A DNA stretch of 64,000 bases from an uncultured Chloroflexia bacterium (lineage in GTDB: Bacteria; Chloroflexota; Limnocylindria; Limnocylindrales; CSP1-4). The notes beneath the pieces were generated by a model, which saw nothing but the letters and a program-made list of their open reading frames with translations, did not search any database and had not been told where the DNA came from. Below, piece by piece: positions 11,725-64,000 of this stretch (within the stretch, counting starts at the first letter, position 1; each line of letters begins with the position of its first letter). Where the stretch lies: NCBI GenBank assembly GCA_963829155.1, contig CAWHIA010000012.1, positions 70,831 to 134,830 of the forward strand, read 5' to 3'. Position numbers and translations under genes: made by a program.

Positions 11725-12345
11725 GTGGATGCGACGCGCTTTGACACCGGGCTGACGTACGAGGCCTTCAAGGGCTCGATGACCCAGAACCGCGAACGGC
11801 TGGAGGCGGCGGAGGCGGCCGTCGCGATCGATCCCCGCGACCTCGAGTTCTTCCGGTCGCTGCTGCCGCTCTCGTGTGTGGCGCTCGTCGAGGACTGGTG
11901 CGGGGACGTCGTCGCCAACCTGCCGGTCGTCGCGGTCCTTGCGCGCGAGGTCGGTCCGGGCCTGGGGCTCCGGTGTTTCATCAAGGCCGACGTGCCCGAT
12001 CTCGCGACGCGTTACCTCAACCACGGCCGGTTCGAGTCCCTGCCGGTGTTCGCCTTCTTCGACGGCGACTGGAACGAGGTCGGCGTGTTCATCGAGCGGC
12101 CCGTGGCGGTCACCGAGCGCCGCGAGGAGGATCGTCGGGCCGTCTACGCGGGCGACCCCGCGTTCGGCCCGCCCGATGCGCCGGCGAGCGAGCTGCCCGA
12201 CGACGTCCGCACCCGCCTGATGACCGAGATCCAGGCCAGGCGGACCGCGAGCACGCCGTGGGCGAACCGCCAGGTCGTGGTGGCCATCCGCGACGCCATC
12301 GCCCGCGCGCCCCAGGTCGGCGAGCGCGTGCCGCACACGCGATGA
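11725..12345 (+). CDS. thioredoxin-like family protein
   Basis: The sequence reads VDATRFDTGLTYEAFKGSM..NRERLEAAEAAVAIDPRDLEFF..LSCVALVEDWCGDVVANLPVVAVLA...YLNHGRFESLPVFAFFD. The ORF is open from 11611. I prefer the GTG at 11725, which has GGAGGA about 13 nt upstream. Confidence 0.75.
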   Translation: MDATRFDTGLTYEAFKGSMTQNRERLEAAEAAVAIDPRDLEFFRSLLPLSCVALVEDWCGDVVANLPVVAVLAREVGPGLGLRCFIKADVPDLATRYLNHGRFESLPVFAFFDGDWNEVGVFIERPVAVTERREEDRRAVYAGDPAFGPPDAPASELPDDVRTRLMTEIQARRTASTPWANRQVVVAIRDAIARAPQVGERVPHTR

Positions 12346-12599
12346 GCGCCCGGGTCCGGATCGTCTATTGCGCCGAGTGTGGCTACGAGCCACAGACGCT
12401 CGCGCTCGCCGACGCGCTGATGCGGCGGTTCGGCCACGACCTGGCGTCGATCGAGCTCGTGCCCTGGCTGGACGGCACGTTTGAGGTCTCCGTGGACGGC
12501 CGGCTCGTGCACTCGATGGCCCGCGACGGCGGGTTCCCGGAGCACGCGACCATCGTCGACGCCGTCTCGGCCAGCCTCGCGGCGCAACCCACGGCCTAA
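12342..12599 (+). CDS. Rdx (SelW/SelT/SelH-like) family redox protein
   Basis: The sequence is MSARVRIVYCAECGYEPQTLALADALMRRFGHDLASIELVPWLDGTFEVSVDGRLVHS, with a CxxC motif (CAEC). The ATG overlaps the upstream stop (ATGA). Confidence 0.75.
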   Translation: MSARVRIVYCAECGYEPQTLALADALMRRFGHDLASIELVPWLDGTFEVSVDGRLVHSMARDGGFPEHATIVDAVSASLAAQPTA

Positions 12600-12900
12600 C
12601 GGCACGCCTCAGACCATCTCGGTGGGTGTCCTGGCACTTCCGATAAGGTGAGTTATGTCCGGCGTTACTGGCAATGCCTACTCGGCCCGGTGTGAAGTGT
12701 CGTAGACGCCCGGACAGATCCTCAGATTCGCCGGACAAAGATCTGGGACGGCCGTTCGCAATCTTCTGGGACGTCACAGCCCGGAACCGAGAGCGCCCAT
12801 TGACCAAGATGGGCCTGGGCACAGCAATGCGGTGACACAACCCCTCTTTTGAGACGAAGCGACACCGCGCCCCAGACCGTACGCTCCCAGATCGTCTCGG

Positions 12901-14223
12901 TCAACGGTCGTTCAAGTCATCTTCCGGGTCACGCGCCCGACCTGGCGGAGCGGGAGCTTGGGATGCGGGCCGAACGCGATCCCCGATCGCGTGCAGTTGC
13001 GTCAAGACGTCGGGATCAAATCGAGCCTTGCGCCAGTTCTTGGCTCCCGTCGCAATGCTGGTAATCGCGCTTACATCAAGCACTGCGCCAGTCAGGTATG
13101 CGTTGTTCAGGTCAGCGCCCTCGAAGTGAGCACCCGTCAGGTCCGCTCCATTGAAGTGGGCCTCTTGCAGGTGTGCCTGGTAGAACTGCGCCCCTGTCAA
13201 CACGGCCCCTTCAAGGCGAGCCGAGACGCAATTCGCGCCGTGAAACTGCGCATTCGGTGCTATCGCGCTGTTCAGCCTCGCCTCGCGCAAGTCCGTGCGA
13301 CTGAGCCGCGCATCGGACAAGTCGACCTTGAAGCCGCGAACACGGAACAGCGTGGCTTCCGTGAGGTTTGCGTGGTGGAGCGACGCAAATGCCAAGTCCG
13401 CCTCGCTGAGGTCCAGGGCCGAGAGGTCGATACCATCCAGATGCACCCGCGAAAGGTCGAGCGGTTCCGCCGCGGCTCCAACGACCGGCTTAGCTAGCTT
13501 GACCCTGACTGACTTCTCAATAGCATCAACGAACAATCGGCCGACGGCATCCGAGTACTGGATCCCCGATTTCGCGGTTGCAATCGCCAACAACAGGACG
13601 CGGTCGTGAAACTGCTCATATTCGGGAGTCAGCAGAAACGTGAGCGATACGAGGGCGCTTGCCTGCAGCGCGGCACTGTCCGACCCTAGTTGCTCGACAA
13701 CCTTACTTAGGCTCTCCGAGAAGCGGCGGATGTCTTCCCGCTTTGCCTCGCGCGCTTCTTGCCGCCGTTGCTCCGCCCGCTCGTTCAGCTGATGCCAGGC
13801 GGTGGCGATCAGGCCAAGCCCCGCCACGATGAGTGGCACGAAGGGAAGGAGTCCGGTCCATTGGTTTCCGGTCGATGCATTCTGGAGTTGTAGCGCGCGG
13901 ATCTCCTGGCGAAGCTTCTCCGCTTCGAGCGCGCCCTGATCCAGTTGGGAAAGATTGGGGCCTTGGATTGGGAGCGGAGCAGTGAGCGTGATCAACACGA
14001 GGACAGCAACTACCGAAGCCCCGATGACCGCTCCGGCTCTCAGCCATGGGCGCCAGGCGATCAGCAGCCGCTTCGTGGACGGAATGACGTCCTTGACGCT
14101 CACGACGTCGGCCCCCGCTGCTCGGCTGACGATACGAGATCGCATCGCAGCTCTTCTACCCGTAGGCATCCCGAACGACCGAGATTGACGCGGTATCGAC
14201 CCGAGCTTACGATCGCGCCTCAA
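12901..14223 (-). CDS. membrane protein (2 TM plus coiled coil) with a C-terminal pentapeptide-repeat domain
   Basis: The repeat region reads DLSRVHLDGIDLSALDLSEADLAFASLHHANLTEATLFRVRGFKVDLSDARLSRTDLREARL...GAVLTGAQFYQAHLQEAHFNGADLTGAHFEGADLNNAYLTGAVL. The TM helices are GAVIGASVVAVLVLITL and LLPFVPLIVAGLGLIATAW. Codon usage is AT-richer than in the neighbours. Confidence 0.85.
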   Translation of the reverse strand: MRRDRKLGSIPRQSRSFGMPTGRRAAMRSRIVSRAAGADVVSVKDVIPSTKRLLIAWRPWLRAGAVIGASVVAVLVLITLTAPLPIQGPNLSQLDQGALEAEKLRQEIRALQLQNASTGNQWTGLLPFVPLIVAGLGLIATAWHQLNERAEQRRQEAREAKREDIRRFSESLSKVVEQLGSDSAALQASALVSLTFLLTPEYEQFHDRVLLLAIATAKSGIQYSDAVGRLFVDAIEKSVRVKLAKPVVGAAAEPLDLSRVHLDGIDLSALDLSEADLAFASLHHANLTEATLFRVRGFKVDLSDARLSRTDLREARLNSAIAPNAQFHGANCVSARLEGAVLTGAQFYQAHLQEAHFNGADLTGAHFEGADLNNAYLTGAVLDVSAITSIATGAKNWRKARFDPDVLTQLHAIGDRVRPASQAPAPPGRARDPEDDLNDR

Positions 14224-14864
14224 CCGAGTGTGACGCTTCGTTCATCTCCGGATGGGGGTTGTGTCGCCAGTGGTTGTTAGGCCCCGCGGGTGACTCATTC
14301 GGGTAACCGGACGAGGCGCTCACGCGGGGCCGCCTGCTGTGCGGCGACTGCGCTCGGCCGAGCTCGAGAGATGCAGTCGCCCCCAAAACGGTGGCACACG
14401 ACCCGGCAAGCCACGCCGCGGCACTCCACTTCGGGGGCTGACGGGAACTTTAGAACCCCGAAACTCGATGTCAAGACTCTGGCGGCGGACCAGACCACGG
14501 CTGAAGAGGCCCCCGGCAGCGCGACCTATCGCATGTCTCGCGGGCGGAGGCGCGTTCCCACTGGCTGAGTTGTCCGAACAGCGCTGCGCCTTGGGTGCAC
14601 GTCCGCAGCAATGAGTCCAATATCCGCACGACCGGTCGGGTCGCCGATCCCCTTGGCTGGCAAGGTGATCTCGAATGGCTGAGAGCCACGAGGTCTTCTC
14701 GCCCGATCACCCGCACGTGCTCCGTCGCCGCGACCCAGTCTTGACGTCATCCGAGGTCCGGGCCCCGATCTGACTCAGAACGAGGCTGTCAAGGACCGGG
14801 ATCAGCCGCGGTCGCTTGATGTGCAGAACCTTGGTGACGACTGCGATCCCGCTACCCTCGAACC

Positions 14865-58016: not shown

Positions 58017-58710
58017 GTGAGCGACGCGCTGCGGGTCATCCTCGAGGTCGGCAAGAAACGCCGGGTCGTCGCGGGCGCGATGGACTGGCCGGGACTCGAT
58101 CGCTGGGGCACGTCGGAGGACGACGCGATCGAGAAGCTGCTGGCCTACACGCCGCGGTACGCCGGCGTGGCCGAGCGGGCCGGCCTGGCGAAGGCGTTCG
58201 CGAAGGCGGGCAACGTCGAGGTGGTCGAGCGCGTGCCCGGGTCGAGCTCGACCGACTTCTGGGGCATCGCGCACGTGCCGTCGCAGGTCGAGATCGACAT
58301 CCTGCCCGCGGCGGACCTGGAACGACGGCTCGATCTCCTCCGCGCGTGCTGGACCACCTTCGACGAGGTCTCGGCCGGCATCGATCGGCCCGCTCGTGCC
58401 CGGACCGCGGAGCGCCGGGCGGACGCGCGAGCAGATCATCCGCCACGTCTACATCAGCGAGCCCGAGCAGTTCTCGCGCAAGGTCGAGATCCGGACGCCA
58501 CCGGACGCCGTCATGACCCCGGACGGCCGCAAGGACCACCGGCTGGCGTACCTCGCGGCGATCCGGGCGTACAACGCCGACGGGCGGCCGGCCCGCACCT
58601 GGCCGATCCAGTTCCTCGTCCGGCGAACCGCCCACCACGTGATGGACCACGCGTGGGAGCTCGAGGACCGCGACCCCGCGCGACAGGGTCGGAAGACGGG
58701 GCCGAGCTAG
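58017..58710 (+). pseudogene. DinB-superfamily-like hypothetical protein, with a +1 frameshift near 58390
   Basis: The N-terminal part reads MSDALRVILEVGKKRRVVAGAMDWPGLDRWGTSEDDAIEKLLAYTPRYAGVA...CWTTFDEVSAG. The C-terminal part reads GPRSAGRTREQIIRHVYISEPEQFSRKV...WPIQFLVRRTAHHVMDHAWELEDR (ORF 58396..58710). Confidence 0.55.
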
Positions 58711-59350
58711 GCGAGCTCGAGGACGCGGCCCTGGATGCGCCCGGCGTCCGGGTACTCCTCGTCGTGGGCGATGCCGGCCTCGGACAGGCCGAGCGCGATC
58801 GCAGCAGCGTCGGTCATGAACAGGTAGGGATGGATCCCGGTCCGCTCTCGGACGCTGTTCTTGAGCAGCCGATGCGCCACCGTCACGGACGGGCCGAGCA
58901 GGTCGCTCCCCGACCCGACCGCCTGGCGGACCACGTGACCCCGGTGGAGAACGGCCTTGAGGTCGAGGTGCGCGACGGTCGGACAGGCGGTGCAGACGTG
59001 GTCCGCGGAGGGGATCGCCCGATGGCGGCTGTCGACGAACGATCGGTACATGCGATCCGAGGTCCGTGCAGGACGCGATCGCCCTGCCCGTCGAGACGCG
59101 CCGCGGGAGCCGCCGCGAACACGGCGTCGCCCTCGAGCTTGACCACCGCGAAGTCCGGCTGGATCCCCTCGATCACGGCGTTCAAGAGGGCGGCCAGCAT
59201 CCCGTACGCGGCCGGAATGCCGTCGCTGAAGTCGACCCCGTGCTCGTGCTCGACGCCGGTCATGAAGGCCGTGTAGCCCGAGATGTCCGCGAGCAGCAGG
59301 TACCGCTCCCCCGCGGGCGGCTCCACCTGCGCCGCCGTCGCCGGCGACAT
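58707..59350 (-). pseudogene. DUF2652 family protein (nucleotidyl-cyclase-like fold), with a -1 frame change near 59065
   Basis: The N-terminal part reads MSPATAAQVEPPAGERYLLLADISGYTAFMTGVEHEHG...VVKLEGDAVFAAAP. The C-terminal part reads MYRSFVDSRHRAIPSADHVCTACPTVAHLDLKAVLHRGHVVRQAVGSGSDLLGPSVTVAHRLLKNSV. Confidence 0.75.
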
Positions 59351-59434
59351 CGATCCCTGCGCACTCTCCACAGGCGCATCGTACGTGGAGTCCGAGGGTC
59401 GACGCAGTGCTGTCGTTTCGGTACGCTGCGCGCG

Positions 59435-60111
59435 ATGAGCTTCGACTACGAACAGAAGCCCTCGAGCTCCCGGTTCGTCGACGTCTTCTGGCGCACATAC
59501 GACACCAGCGACGGGACGTACCTCGCGGCGGCGGACGCGTGCTGGGACATGATCTTCATCCGCGGCGCCGATGGGGTCCGGGCGCTCCTGAGCGGTCCGT
59601 CGTCGACGATCACGCCGGTCCCCTACAAGGCCGGCAACCGGAACGTCGGCATCCGGTTCGTCCGTGGATCCTTCCTGACCCACGTGCCGGCGTCGGTCAT
59701 GGTCGACACCACGATCACGCTGCCGATGACGCCCGACGGATCGTTCGTGCTCGCCGGGCACGAGTGGCCGTGCCGACCTACGAGACGGTCGAGTCCTTCG
59801 TAGCGGAGCTGGAGCGGCGCGAGCTCCTCAGCGACGACCCGCTGGTGGTGGCCGTGCTGGCGGGCGACGCACCCGACGCGTCGACGCGATCGGTCCAGCG
59901 GCACGTCGCCCAGGCCACGGGCCTCACGGAGACCCGCATCCGCAAGATCGTGCGCGCCCGCACGGCGGTCGTGATGCTGCAACGGGGCGACTCGATCCTC
60001 GACGTCACGCACGACCTCGGCTATGCCGACCAGGCGCACCTCACGCGAGACCTCAAGTACCTCACGGGGTACACGCCGGGCCAGACGCAGGATCGCAACG
60101 AGCCGATCTAG
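59435..60111 (+). pseudogene. AraC family transcriptional regulator, with a -1 frame change near 59775
   Basis: The N-terminal part reads MSFDYEQKPSSSRFVDVFWRTYDTSDGTYLAAADACWDMIF...GIRFVRGSFL. The C-terminal part reads PTYETVESFVAELERRELL...STRSVQRHVAQATGLT...GYADQAHLTRDLKYLTGYTP (ORF 59407..60111). Confidence 0.78.
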
Positions 60112-61447: not shown

Positions 61448-63010
61448 CTAGCCTTGGCCCGCGGAGCCCGGCGCGGCGTGCGGACGCGCGCTTCCGACGA
61501 CCGCCTCGGCGAGCAGGAACCCCAAGACTTGGGTTGTGGTGAGGATCAAGAGTGTCAGGGGCGTTCCTGCCACATTGGCCAACGCGTTGAACGCACCTCC
61601 CTCGTTGAGCGCGGCGGCGATCGCGCTCACCACGATGCCGACGGTCGCAGCCTCGGCCCAACGATTCGCCGCCACCGCAGTCAATAGTGGGACATTCCTG
61701 ACCAGGAACCGCAGCCGCAGAAGCTCGATCAGTGTCGCCACGATCGTCGAACCGACAACGATGCCAACGATCGCGCCGAGGATCTGACTTGAAGTCGCTG
61801 GTGGGTTGGCGTCGAAACTCGTCAAGGCAAATACGACCCCAATCACGATCCCTATGAGGGATCCGAGCAGGGCGCGCGCGACTCCTCGCGCCATGTCCAA
61901 CGCGAACGGAGGCAGGCCAGTCCGACGGGGGATCTCGGACGCACTGATTGGACTGTCGTTGGACGAAACCTGCCCTTCGAGAGACGGGTGCGCCGACTCA
62001 TTCCTCGCAGTTGCAAGGATCGCCGCAGGTACCGCTGCGGCCGGGGGCGCGCTTCCCAGGGCCTGCGTGGCGCGCTGCGCGACGCGACGGCTGTCGTCGG
62101 TGGTCAGCGCCTGAATGGCCGCCGTTGCCGCCTGCGCCGTCCGCTTGTCCGATGACGACCGGATCCGCTCGAGGTCGATGATCGCGTCGAGGCGGTCGAT
62201 CGGCTCACCGCTCTTCAGGAGCAGCTGCACGCGCTCCGGGAGGAGCTTGACGCTGGGGACGCGCGTGGTCCGCGCGATGACCCAGTCACCGGTCTGATTG
62301 ACGGCCGATTTCGTCGGCGTCTGCGAGGGGGAGGTCTCGCGCACCCGGCGCTCGAGGTAGTCGAAGAGCTCGTTGATAGAGACGTTGCCATCCTCGTCCT
62401 GGTCGGCCTCGCCTGTCCGCAGCCCGTCGACCAGCGCCTGCGTAAAGGGCGACGGACCCGGCGGCTCGCCGACCTGTTGCCCGCCCTCGAACGAGTACTG
62501 CATCGCGTCGGAGGCGGTGATGACGACCATGCCGCGACCGGTGAACTGGTCCTTGACACCCGCGGTCTCCCCTGCGGCGCGTCGGGTCATCCCGGAGCTG
62601 AACGCCCCGGCGAAGCAGCAGTCGAGGAACAGGGCGATCCGCTCGGACCGGCAGCGGTCCATCACGCGGTTCACCCAACTCGCATCGATCCCCGTCGACA
62701 TGAGCCGATCGAGCTTCGTGTCCGACGCGGCGAGGAACAGCTGCCCATCATCGTCCTTGAGGCCGTGGCACGAGACACTCACGAGGAGGAGGTCGTCGCG
62801 CGATCGGTCGGTGAAGAACGCCTCGAGCGTCTCGCGGATCAACGCGGACCGCGCGTTGAGCAGCGTCTTGACCTCGAACCCGCCAATGTCCTGAGATCCG
62901 AGTACGCCCTTGAGCGCCGCCGCGTCCTTGGCCGGCCCTTGGAGGGTCGCGAGACGCTGGTCGGCATACGTGCTCGTCGCGATGATCAGCGCGCTGCGAC
63001 CGGCTCCCAT
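61448..63010 (-). CDS. caspase-family (peptidase C14) protein with an EF-hand loop, HEAT-like repeats and 4 C-terminal TM helices
   Basis: The sequence begins SALIIATSTYAD...LQGPAKDAAAL. The catalytic His is in LLVSVSCHG (aa 82) and the catalytic Cys in ALFLDCCFAG (aa 131/132). The EF-hand loop is DQDEDGNVSINELFDY (aa 203-218). HEAT-like repeats follow (DRLDAIIDLERI...RRVAQRATQALG). The TM helices include LLGSLIGIVIGVVFAL and ILGAIVGIVVGSTIVATLI. The ORF is intact at 520 aa and AT-richer. Confidence 0.85.
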   Translation of the reverse strand: MGAGRSALIIATSTYADQRLATLQGPAKDAAALKGVLGSQDIGGFEVKTLLNARSALIRETLEAFFTDRSRDDLLLVSVSCHGLKDDDGQLFLAASDTKLDRLMSTGIDASWVNRVMDRCRSERIALFLDCCFAGAFSSGMTRRAAGETAGVKDQFTGRGMVVITASDAMQYSFEGGQQVGEPPGPSPFTQALVDGLRTGEADQDEDGNVSINELFDYLERRVRETSPSQTPTKSAVNQTGDWVIARTTRVPSVKLLPERVQLLLKSGEPIDRLDAIIDLERIRSSSDKRTAQAATAAIQALTTDDSRRVAQRATQALGSAPPAAAVPAAILATARNESAHPSLEGQVSSNDSPISASEIPRRTGLPPFALDMARGVARALLGSLIGIVIGVVFALTSFDANPPATSSQILGAIVGIVVGSTIVATLIELLRLRFLVRNVPLLTAVAANRWAEAATVGIVVSAIAAALNEGGAFNALANVAGTPLTLLILTTTQVLGFLLAEAVVGSARPHAAPGSAGQG

Positions 63011-63023
63011 CGCATAGGGCCGA

Positions 63024-63422
63024 TCAGGACACAGGTTGCGGGTGACGGGCCATCCACGCGCCGATGACCTTGTGCTGGTCGGCTTCCGTCATGCCCGTCA
63101 ACTCGAGGGTGTCGTCGCCAATCGTCAGCTTTGCCGTCCGCTGCGGCGACCGCGCGGCCCACGCCTGCACCACGGCGATGACCTGTCCGAGGATCGGGCC
63201 GGCCTTGCCGAGCTCGACGATCAGCTGGCCCAGGATCGCGATGTCGACACCGCGCGCGTCCGCGGGCGCGGGCCCTGCCGACGGTCGGTCGACTCGGTCG
63301 ACATCCAGGCGAAGGAGCTCGCGCCGGAGCGCGGCAGTCAGCTCGTCGAGCTCCGCGGCTGATGCACCCTCGCCCGCGTCGAGGCTGATGTCGAGTGTGC
63401 TGCTCTTCGCGTCCACGTCCAC
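63024..63422 (-). CDS. small protein resembling the 'effector-associated constant component EACC1' family
   Basis: The sequence reads ELDELTAALRRELLRLDVDRVDRPSAGPAPADARGVDIAILGQLIVELGKAGPILGQVIAVVQAWAARSPQRTAKLTIGDDTLELTGMTEADQHKVI. It has a GTG start and ends 13 nt upstream of the caspase gene. The family call is from memory of the sequence pattern, not from a search. Confidence 0.55.
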   Translation of the reverse strand: MDVDAKSSTLDISLDAGEGASAAELDELTAALRRELLRLDVDRVDRPSAGPAPADARGVDIAILGQLIVELGKAGPILGQVIAVVQAWAARSPQRTAKLTIGDDTLELTGMTEADQHKVIGAWMARHPQPVS

Positions 63423-63474: not shown

Positions 63475-64000
63475 TCAGCGCGACGGGACCTCGATGTCCG
63501 CGGTCGGCTGCAGGTCGAACCGGATCGGGTCCTGGTAGAGGTAGCTCGCCATGAGGTGGGTCTCGGCCTCGGTGTAGTCGCCGGTGAACACGAAGTTGCC
63601 GTTCCTCGTCTGGCCGTCGATCGGCAGCGTCGCCAGGACGGTCCCGTCGAGGACGAGCGCCACGTACTCGCCCTGGTGGGTCGAGGCGAACGCCAGGAAC
63701 GCGTCCGTCGCCTCGTTGGACAGGTGGATCGCGAGCCCACGACGCCCGGTCAGCAGGATCGACGTGGGCCGTCGTCAGGCCCGCGCGCGACGGCGGCGCG
63801 ATCGGCGGCAGCGACGGGTCGATCTGGGTCCCGGCGGCGGGCAGCGCGGTGCCGCCTGGGCTGGCGGCCGTTCCGTACGTGCTCGGCGGCAGGGGCACGA
63901 CCGTCAACGCGCCGTGCGCGAGGATGAGCCGGCGATCCGCGTCCGGGTCCGTCGAGCCGCAGATCGTGACGCCGACACGGTCTGGTTCGAGGGTGTCGAC
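63475..64000 (-). pseudogene. protein with a SecD-P1-head-like C-terminal domain; the 5' end is beyond the right edge, and there is a +1 frameshift near 63750
   Basis: The frame open from 64000 reads VDTLEPDRVGVTICGSTDPDADRRLILAHGALTVVPLPPSTYG...AGLTTAH. It continues in the +1 frame as SILLTGRRGLAIHLSNEATDAFLAFASTHQGEYVALVLDGTVLATLPIDGQTRNGNFVFTGDYTEAETHLMASYL. Confidence 0.55.

Follow-up and report, generated by a model that had tools for sequence, protein, structure and literature searches.

A pair of neighbouring minus-strand genes in a 64,000-nucleotide (nt) stretch of contig CAWHIA010000012.1, from an uncultured Chloroflexia bacterium (the whole stretch is called the window here), is assigned in this analysis to the EACC1-caspase systems. 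We consider it likely that the two genes make up a protease and pro-toxin cell-death module of the 'System 4' type that works as proposed below. The upstream gene encodes a 132-amino-acid (aa) EACC1-family protein and the downstream gene a 520-aa EACC1-associated caspase-like protease, in which the catalytic domain is followed by a HEAT-like region and four transmembrane (TM) helices. The assignment draws on family membership, an intact active site, the linkage of the two genes, a conserved linker motif and purifying selection. By homology to the pair KrEACC1 and KrAvs12, introduced below, it could be expected that the protease cleaves EACC1 and sets free a toxic, pore-forming C-terminal fragment. 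The type of module is already known; what appears to be new is the conservation of an EF-hand-type loop within the protease, a likely specificity for arginine and the mosaic character of the membrane tail.

The EACC1-caspase gene pair

Both open reading frames (ORFs) lie where the preliminary description of this DNA had placed them, with 13 nt between them, and the motifs it had quoted are all present (SCHG with H82, DCCF with C131 and C132, and the loop DQDEDGNVSINE at exactly 62369-62404). About 150 homologs are found for the small protein and several hundred for the large one, and the caspase core has a ratio of nonsynonymous to synonymous substitution rates (dN/dS) of 0.04-0.10 against two relatives, indicating strong purifying selection; from these two observations it follows that both ORFs are real genes and not chance reading frames. 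Both are complete, their alignments with homologs running from one end to the other, and the catalytic and motif residues are all intact. In relatives, the called EACC1 and caspase genes are 13 nt apart or overlap, and the two genes of the window are probably co-transcribed. The stop codon of the gene upstream and the EACC1 start are only 52 nt apart; no consensus promoter is seen upstream of EACC1, and promoter and terminator scans of the locus gave nothing.

Modules of this kind had been presented to us as uncharacterised, which does not hold. Kaur et al. (2020; PMC7159879) defined 'System 4' as a 5' EACC1 gene followed by a 3' caspase gene with up to 50 alternative C-terminal domains, found TM helices in at least 33% of the caspase components, located the system chiefly among actinobacteria, with sporadic cases in proteobacteria, linked it to a multicellular habit, and proposed that EACC1 acts as a sensor and that the C-terminal domains are set free to act as effectors. 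Evans et al. (2025; bioRxiv 10.1101/2025.11.14.688446) then showed cleavage and membrane permeabilisation for the Ktedonobacter racemifer pair KrEACC1 (WP_007905045.1) and KrAvs12 (WP_040441935.1). The caspase domain of KrAvs12 cuts EACC1 into fragments of 5.7 and 7.1 kDa, with a putative site after Asp49, and both cleavage and toxicity are abolished in the C152A mutant; toxicity lies in the C-terminal fragment only, liposomes are permeabilised by the cleaved form only, and the trigger consists of phage tail-connector proteins (bioRxiv 10.1101/2025.11.14.688446). EACC1, which the preliminary description had cast as a constant partner, is thus by experiment the pro-toxin substrate in the Ktedonobacter system.

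The likeness of the window pair to these systems extends over both proteins. As in the Ktedonobacter pair, an upstream EACC1 gene is followed by one whose protein has a caspase domain at its start, the protease carries the LDCCF active-site motif together with an xxGHG-type His motif, and the small protein combines an N-terminal unit and an [RK]-x-x-[DE] linker motif with a hydrophobic segment, a Trp that is invariant and a beta hairpin. Ktedonobacter belongs to Chloroflexota, the same phylum as the host of the window. The 5' EACC1 gene, the 3' gene with its N-terminal caspase, the variable C-terminal region and the TM helices are all shared with System 4, and the Kribbella System 4 proteins P0125 and P0131 have NF047832 scores like that of the window protein and the same EF-type loop. 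Differences from System 4 as described are the Chloroflexota host and a window EACC1 subfamily that falls below the Pfam EACC1 threshold.

Gene linkage was followed through loci retrieved with the EACC1 profile alone, one genome per species. The ten loci returned are all from Chloroflexota metagenome-assembled genomes (MAGs; 'uncultured Chloroflexia' MFD bins and Ca. Limnocylindrales), and a full caspase domain is encoded directly downstream of EACC1 in nine of them, its match starting 14-39 nt after the EACC1 match; in the tenth, L011, a 44-aa remnant is what is left of the caspase. The same arrangement occurs with unrelated flanks in loci L001, L002 and L004. The earlier view of the pair as a conserved two-gene conflict or cell-death module is upheld, and the EACC1-caspase system is extended to uncultured soil and freshwater Chloroflexota. 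Actinomycetota, the lineage in which the preliminary description had proposed to look for the pair, is probably wrong for the window, the related loci all being from Chloroflexota; actinobacterial members exist, for example in Kribbella.

The caspase fold proposed for the start of the 520-aa protein is borne out by Pfam PF00656, by NCBIfam and by structure comparison. The NCBIfam model NF047832 ("caspase, EACC1-associated type") matches residues 6-225 with 161.4 bits against a cutoff of 140, and the AlphaFold2 model of the whole protein, with a mean predicted local distance difference test score (pLDDT) of 84.7 (94 homologs), has the MALT1 paracaspase as its best Foldseek match in the PDB (E=2e-10), followed by caspases 6, 7, 1, 11 and 3. 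Sequence identity is only 14-18%, and a single-sequence phmmer search of the caspase against the PDB gave no match, a family profile being needed. The protein resembles the MALT1 paracaspase and the metacaspases (clan CD, family C14) in MALT1 being its best structural match and in the possible parallels among S1 residues given below; MALT1 and the metacaspases, unlike the window protein, have neither an EACC1 partner nor a TM tail.

Five residues of the active site (H82, G83, D130, C131 and C132) are invariant in 94 of 94 sequences. In the family profile H82-G83 falls on the catalytic His of the MALT1 motif 'YYAGHG', and comparison of SCHG with 'YYVGHG' of KrAvs12 equates H82 with H101 of that enzyme. 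The LDCCF motif is identical in KrAvs12, in the sequence given in the supplement of the preprint, and the catalytic residue mutated there, C152, is its second Cys. Since C152 occupies that position, the nucleophile of the window protein is most likely C132. C131 was considered for the role and ruled out, C132 being the residue that corresponds to C152. The His/Cys dyad named in the preliminary description does therefore align with caspase catalytic residues, through MALT1 for H82 and through KrAvs12 for C132. In the low-confidence loop that follows the catalytic Cys (residues 140-160; 62531-62593), R144, A150, G151, V152 and K153 are invariant among 19 full-length homologs (alignment A2). By its location this loop matches the intersubunit linker of caspases, and it could serve for autoprocessing or regulation.

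The small protein is identified through its relatives. Two of them, P0019 and P0020, found at E~1e-6 among 5.8 billion database sequences, score above the gathering threshold of Pfam EACC1 (PF19953), a profile search adds three further PF19953 proteins (P0224, P0232 and P0235), and hhalign aligns the window clade with PF19953 proteins over 112 columns at 99.5% probability (E=2.6e-23), using a window-clade profile made without any PF19953-annotated member. This profile-profile and transitive evidence argues strongly that the protein is a member of a divergent EACC1 subfamily, so that the identity first proposed for it stands, by way of hhalign to PF19953 proteins and not by a direct match. Its AlphaFold2 model (pLDDT 71) has a strand at residues 8-15, an acidic helix at 22-37 and a low-confidence Pro/Ala linker at 46-63, followed by a C-terminal unit of strand 64-71 and helix 76-91 (the hydrophobic core), a hairpin at 96-109 (KLTIGDDTLELTG) and a helix at 113-125, which fits the layout read from the sequence (an acidic, helical N-part, a linker, a hydrophobic core and a beta-like tail). 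Foldseek returned generic ferredoxin-like folds only for this model, none at E <= 0.001. Residues 1-60 carry a net charge of -7 and the fragment 61-132 is uncharged. W88 is invariant and is aligned by MAFFT with W73 of KrEACC1. The start of the gene is ambiguous (63414-63422), as a second GTG two codons downstream (63416) corresponds to the N-termini of the closest homologs.

A candidate cleavage site can be placed in the linker. All 29 clade members (29/29 at each position) have R or K at position 57, G at position 58 and D or E at position 60, and residues 57-62 have a pLDDT <50, the motif lying in the least confident part of the model. MAFFT places the KrEACC1 segment R46-T-Q-D49, its putative cleavage site, on R57-G-V-D60 of the window protein, with D49 on D60, and the fragment sizes expected for the window EACC1 parallel those of the Ktedonobacter fragments of 5.7 and 7.1 kDa. 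The S1-pocket residues of MALT1, D365, D462 and E500, have possible counterparts in the window enzyme. D29 aligns with D365 in the family profile, D130 stands at the D-x-C position of D462, and E175 is matched to E500 by manual alignment alone. A profile of residues 100-250 did not carry the alignment with MALT1 into the region of the Cys and of E175, and returned EF-hand proteins alone, none of them significant. All three residues are invariant in the window family. It is conceivable that D29, D130 and E175 form an acidic S1 pocket, which would suggest specificity for Arg or Lys at P1. Given such a pocket and the alternation of R and K at position 57, cleavage would more probably be at R57↓G58 than after D60; as a counterpoint, the preprint puts the Ktedonobacter cleavage after Asp49, which would translate to D60↓I61, and D/E at position 60 is conserved too. 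An equivalent of E175 is apparently missing from KrAvs12, and because of this the two enzymes may differ in cleavage specificity.

The membrane tail and the EF-hand-type loop

The conserved core of the protease ends in a HEAT-like region, for which AlphaFold2 predicts helices at residues 259-266, 270-284, 289-302 and 308-319. The HEAT-like repeats of the preliminary description have some support in these four predicted, antiparallel helices; their profile matches are sub-threshold, HEAT_2 reaching 16.4 bits where 27.7 would be needed (E=0.011) and designed ARM-repeat proteins in the PDB matching at E=0.003. Homolog P0130 carries a precomputed PF13646 annotation, and D305, D306 and V310 are invariant. 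Homologs align with only ~61% of the query, from residue 1 to ~320, and then continue into TPR, WD40, Kelch, PD40, FGE, lectin or TM modules, at least one TM segment being present in 106 of 120. The core of the window protein gives way to a tether that is only 7-24% identical among close homologs.

Beyond the tether, the four TM helices described earlier are supported by AlphaFold2 (368-398, 407-434, 441-468 and 470-508) and by hydropathy, two of the four being just moderately hydrophobic, and hydropathy together with the positive-inside rule is consistent with an N-in, C-in topology. Invariant residues of the tail are E429, R450, G497, F498, E502 and G506. No Pfam family matched the tail, and an exhaustive single-sequence search with it among 1.84 billion proteins gave 4 representatives, apparently all of the same caspase family (P0025 and P0066 were already among the caspase homologs). 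Two homologs, P0032 (694 aa) and P0036 (693 aa), carry two tandem copies of the module, including the motif GFxxAEAxxG, and on account of these copies the module is seen to behave as a discrete, duplicable domain.

The tail evolves differently from the core. Among close homologs (P0021-P0028, L001 and L007) the core (residues 1-320) is 79-97% identical to that of the window protein and the tail (365-510) 36-67%, and the rank orders conflict, P0022 having 96.9% identity in the core and 47.9% in the tail and P0021 85.3% and 67.1%. Between the window and L001, dN reaches 0.46 for the tail against 0.02 for the core, so that the tail changes about 20 times faster at nonsynonymous sites, and dN/dS is 0.40 and 0.04, respectively; dS is 1.15 in the tail and 0.51 in the core, values to be read with the caveat that dS near 1 is close to saturation and that divergent TM segments align imperfectly. 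As the tail dS is about twice that of the core and the identity ranks conflict, it is suggested that the tail is mosaic, its alleles having been exchanged or diversified between lineages. Against relatives the tail has a dN/dS of 0.19-0.44, and by this estimate it is still under constraint. A fast-evolving and apparently exchanged membrane tail would be a likely determinant of specificity.

Within the caspase domain, DQDEDGNVSINEL fits the PROSITE pattern PS00018, and of 120 homologs 111 fit it at the same position. Class-invariant over 94 sequences are loop positions 1 (D), 3 (D/N), 5 (D), 8 (V/I) and 12 (E/D), with Gly at position 6 in 86 of the 94. In the AlphaFold2 model the loop is flanked by helices 188-199 and 212-226 and includes the short strand typical of EF-hands at 209-211 (loop positions 7-9), with a pLDDT of 96-97. 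Pfam EF-hand_8 scores 11.5 bits, below its 28-bit cutoff, and a second EF-hand loop is absent, leaving this one unpaired. In the PDB, the profile of residues 100-250 best matches genuine EF-hand proteins, with the loop as the aligned part (Asr1131 'LDRDQDGKISINELF', calcineurin B and troponin C), none of them significant (E >= 0.095) for so short a segment. Of the "textbook" EF-hand in the preliminary description, the canonical PS00018 loop between two helices is retained, but neither a significant EF-hand profile nor a pair accompanies it. As the curated profiles stay below threshold and the loop is single, its proper label, to judge from sequence and model, is an EF-hand-like (DxDxDG-type) loop embedded in a caspase fold.

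KrAvs12 lacks this loop, having NGDVHSRNNLSLYTL where the window protein has DQDEDGNVSINE. Neither the main text of Kaur et al. nor the preprint of Evans et al. mentions an EF-hand loop or calcium, and the sole related mention that we found in the literature counts an 'EF-hand motif' among the accessory domains of archaeal orthocaspases. The conserved EF-hand-type loop of EACC1-associated caspases has apparently not been reported before. From its conservation pattern, it could reasonably be hypothesized that the protease is gated by Ca2+ through this loop. Metacaspases are Ca2+-activated, and their Ca2+ site is made of Asp residues of the p20 region and not of an EF-hand loop between the last two helices.

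A wider idea, which we put forward tentatively and hold to be possible rather than probable, is that the invariant loop makes the core EACC1-caspases Ca2+-gated enzymes, which in the present case would read envelope injury or phage-induced ion influx with a diversifying, recombining four-helix receptor, and which, as a corollary, would cut after Arg (R57↓G58) in the manner of a paracaspase, and not after Asp, the residue proposed for the Ktedonobacter system. If true, bacteria would here have an equivalent of the damage signalling by Ca2+-activated metacaspases, linked to a gasdermin-like pore. The loop also offers, in D203, D207 and E214, a mutable handle on what switches on sensor-less, membrane-anchored proteases.

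Proposed mechanism and competing explanations

In the mechanism that we consider likely, the 520-aa protease would hold a cytoplasmic catalytic domain and HEAT-like repeats on a flexible tether to the four-helix membrane module. EACC1 would be made as a soluble, autoinhibited pro-toxin whose acidic N-terminal beta-alpha unit packs on the C-terminal half, and the window EACC1 model resembles the autoinhibited monomer described for KrEACC1. A trigger, with input from the membrane tail and/or the EF-hand-type loop, would activate the protease, EACC1 would be cut in the exposed, conserved R57-G-V-D60 linker, and the freed fragment 61-132 would oligomerise into membrane pores, leading to cell death, most likely as abortive infection. 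Such a pathway would be akin to the bacterial gasdermin-protease and Pepco (Trypco)-protease systems, in which an adjacent protease strips an inhibitory segment from a small pro-toxin and the membrane is permeabilised. The effector folds of gasdermin and Pepco are unrelated to EACC1. Pepco is described as a barrel that is assembled beforehand and switched on by trimming at its C-terminus, whereas EACC1 forms oligomers only once cleaved (bioRxiv 10.1101/2025.11.14.688446).

Several points weigh against this reading. The mechanism is transferred over a large distance, the window EACC1 being ~18% identical to KrEACC1, and hhalign of the window EACC1 clade with the single KrEACC1 sequence gave a probability of 0.7%, which is not significant; the link between the two runs through Pfam EACC1, as KrEACC1 itself matches PF19953, and through the MAFFT alignment. 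An EACC1 profile match and synteny elsewhere had been named as the check on the identification, and the pair is indeed linked across genomes, but the small protein has no direct match in Pfam, NCBIfam or PADLOC (NCBIfam has none for KrEACC1 or P0019 either). KrAvs12 carries an Avs-type STAND NTPase sensor, in contrast to the HEAT-like region and four TM helices of the window protein, which has no NTPase, and its NF047832 score of 83 bits is below the cutoff and far from the 161 bits of the window protein. The position of the Asp49 site rests on an AlphaFold3 model in a preprint and is called putative there. Finally, no defence genes are found in the immediate neighbourhood of the window pair, and the module lies within a conserved chromosomal context. 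The NF047832 scores can also be read from the side of the family, in which the window protein belongs to the core and KrAvs12, the only characterised enzyme, is an outlier; the features of the window protein are consequently probably typical of most of the family.

The setting of the pair is what gives some weight to an explanation that we judge unlikely, in which the same proteolytic module would serve chromosomal stress- or damage-response death, or membrane quality control, and would be triggered by envelope injury or ion influx and not by a phage protein. To judge from its flank, the module is chromosomal and vertically inherited in its lineage, since the downstream genes (an AraC-type regulator and an epoxide hydrolase) are collinear with L001 at 83% nt identity. 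A stress role would sit well with this inheritance and with the missing defence-island context, with a scan of viral contigs that found no relatives, with a sensor embedded in the membrane in place of a STAND NTPase, and with a loop suited to ion sensing; Evans et al. raise stress-response roles for EACC1-DnaK fusions (bioRxiv 10.1101/2025.11.14.688446), and the multicellular habit noted by Kaur et al. points the same way. It accords less well with the characterised homolog, which answers phage tail-connector proteins, with the related pair at L004, which stands among TIR and ThsB-TIR defence genes, or with the fast, mosaic evolution of the tail, a pattern more often met in recognition surfaces under an arms race than in a housekeeping sensor.

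The roles of the two proteins could also be assigned otherwise. In the model of Kaur et al., a single-pass membrane EACC1 would sense the signal and activate the caspase, which would process itself and free a C-terminal effector. The window EACC1 has one hydrophobic stretch (Kyte-Doolittle mean 1.66 over residues 67-85) and a Gly-rich patch like that noted by these authors, and the conserved low-confidence loop after the catalytic Cys, with R144 and K153 invariant in the 19 full-length homologs, could allow autoprocessing. We nevertheless find this arrangement improbable for the window pair, as its C-terminal region is the four-helix module and offers no enzymatic domain to free, AlphaFold2 folds the hydrophobic stretch as a strand and a helix of a compact alpha+beta domain and not as a TM helix, and KrEACC1 is experimentally the cleaved substrate and the toxic, liposome-permeabilising component. 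Alternatively, the tail itself might be a membrane-damaging, holin-like effector, with EACC1 only regulating or chaperoning the protease. Such an effector would suit the charged or polar residues that stay invariant within predicted TM helices (E429, R450 and E502) and the duplication of the module in P0032 and P0036, yet many homologs keep EACC1 while exchanging the tail for one TM helix and a beta-propeller, Kelch, lectin or FGE-type domain, or while having no TM segments at all. That pattern is one of a variable sensor and not of a constant effector; EACC1 is the constant partner, and the toxin by experiment, so that we give an effector tail very little credence. Scarcely any credence is left for a locus that is a relic without function or an artefact of assembly in a contig rich in errors, an impression that three frame-disrupted neighbours, the frameshifted relatives P0027 and P0054 and the caspase remnant at L011 might give, considering that both ORFs are full length with intact motifs and that the core has a dN/dS of 0.04 and the tail one of 0.19-0.44.

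Coordinates, composition and neighbourhood

The features of the pair are collected in Table 1.

Table 1. Positions in the window of the EACC1-caspase pair and of its observed and predicted parts
Feature	Position	Strand	Basis
EACC1-family gene, predicted pro-toxin, 132 aa	63024..63422	-	GTG start; ORF and homology
Acidic beta-alpha unit, EACC1 residues 1-56, putative autoinhibitory domain	63255..63422	-	AlphaFold2; role from KrEACC1
R57-G58-V59-D60 motif, candidate cleavage site (R57↓G58 or D60↓I61)	63243..63254	-	Conservation, low pLDDT, KrEACC1 alignment
EACC1 C-terminal fragment, residues 61-132, ~7.6 kDa, putative pore-forming toxin	63027..63242	-	AlphaFold2, KrEACC1 parallel
Intergenic spacer, 13 nt, TCGGCCCTATGCG	63011..63023	-	ORF coordinates
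EACC1-associated caspase-like protease gene, HEAT-like region and four-TM tail, 520 aa	61448..63010	-	ATG start; NF047832, AlphaFold2
Caspase (Peptidase_C14) domain, residues 5-250	62261..62998	-	Pfam PF00656 E=4.3e-19; Foldseek
Catalytic His82 (SCHG)	62765..62767	-	Invariant 94/94; aligns with MALT1 His
D130-C131-C132, with C132 the probable nucleophile and D130 a putative acidic S1-pocket residue	62615..62623	-	Invariant 94/94
EF-hand-type 12-residue loop, D203-E214, putative Ca2+ site	62369..62404	-	PROSITE PS00018, AlphaFold2
HEAT/ARM-like helical repeats, residues 255-320, within the conserved core	62051..62248	-	Predicted helices; weak profile matches
Disordered Pro/Ala/Ser-rich tether, residues 321-364	61919..62050	-	pLDDT <50 at 326-363
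Four-helix transmembrane module, residues 365-510, putative sensor or anchor	61481..61918	-	AlphaFold2, hydropathy

The preliminary description had also noted that the two genes use visibly more A/T-ending codons than their flanks. EACC1 has a GC content at third codon positions (GC3) of 0.86 and the caspase one of 0.83, compared with 0.95 in the neighbouring hydrolase, and the 1975-nt region is at the 6.6th percentile for GC; the difference from the hydrolase is thus real but modest, as the pair lies at the 27th-38th percentile of GC3 among the coding-like frames of the window. The dip is concentrated in the membrane tail (GC3 0.76). A recent horizontal transfer of the pair was considered and is countered by this GC3 rank and by the flank collinear with L001.

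The neighbours of the pair are an epoxide hydrolase, an AraC-type regulator, a DUF2652 gene and a SecDF-like gene. By Pfam, the last three are frame-disrupted, unlike the epoxide hydrolase, which is intact. DUF6597 and HTH_18 of the split AraC-type regulator fall into different frames, and the DUF2652 gene and the upstream SecDF-P1-head-like gene are partial, with disruptions at 58707-60111 and 63475-63907. The closest relatives come from long-read MAG projects and include copies of this caspase with frameshifted tails (P0027 and P0054), which makes long-read assembly indels the simplest explanation; the disruptions are probably such indels rather than pseudogenes. The intactness of the pair among disrupted genes, to which the preliminary description had drawn attention, is confirmed as an observation, both genes being intact beside three disrupted neighbours, but it therefore weighs little, and by a rough estimate ~45% of 2-kb stretches would be intact by chance at the disruption rate given there. 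The proposal that being intact among pseudogenes is meaningful was accordingly rejected, the disruptions resembling long-read indel errors. A 360-aa database entry (P0024) is identical to residues 161-520 of the window protein.

Two of the related loci differ from the rest. At L011 (L011:3971-5360, from a Chloroflexia MAG), EACC1 is intact (139 aa) and the caspase is only a ~44-aa remnant beside an unrelated gene on the opposite strand, so that this is an orphan pro-toxin locus. The L004 pair (L004:866-7099) is more distant, with a PF19953-positive EACC1, and lies beside TIR_2, LD_cluster3 and ThsB-TIR genes, a defence-island context; its caspase has the EF-type loop and a different multi-TM tail with a weak Rhomboid-like match (E=0.021).

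A search of the whole window with Rfam gave no RNA family, and a search for paralogs within the window found none. The lowest-GC stretch of the window is at 12100-14500 (~0.63 against a mean of 0.707), below the region of the pair.

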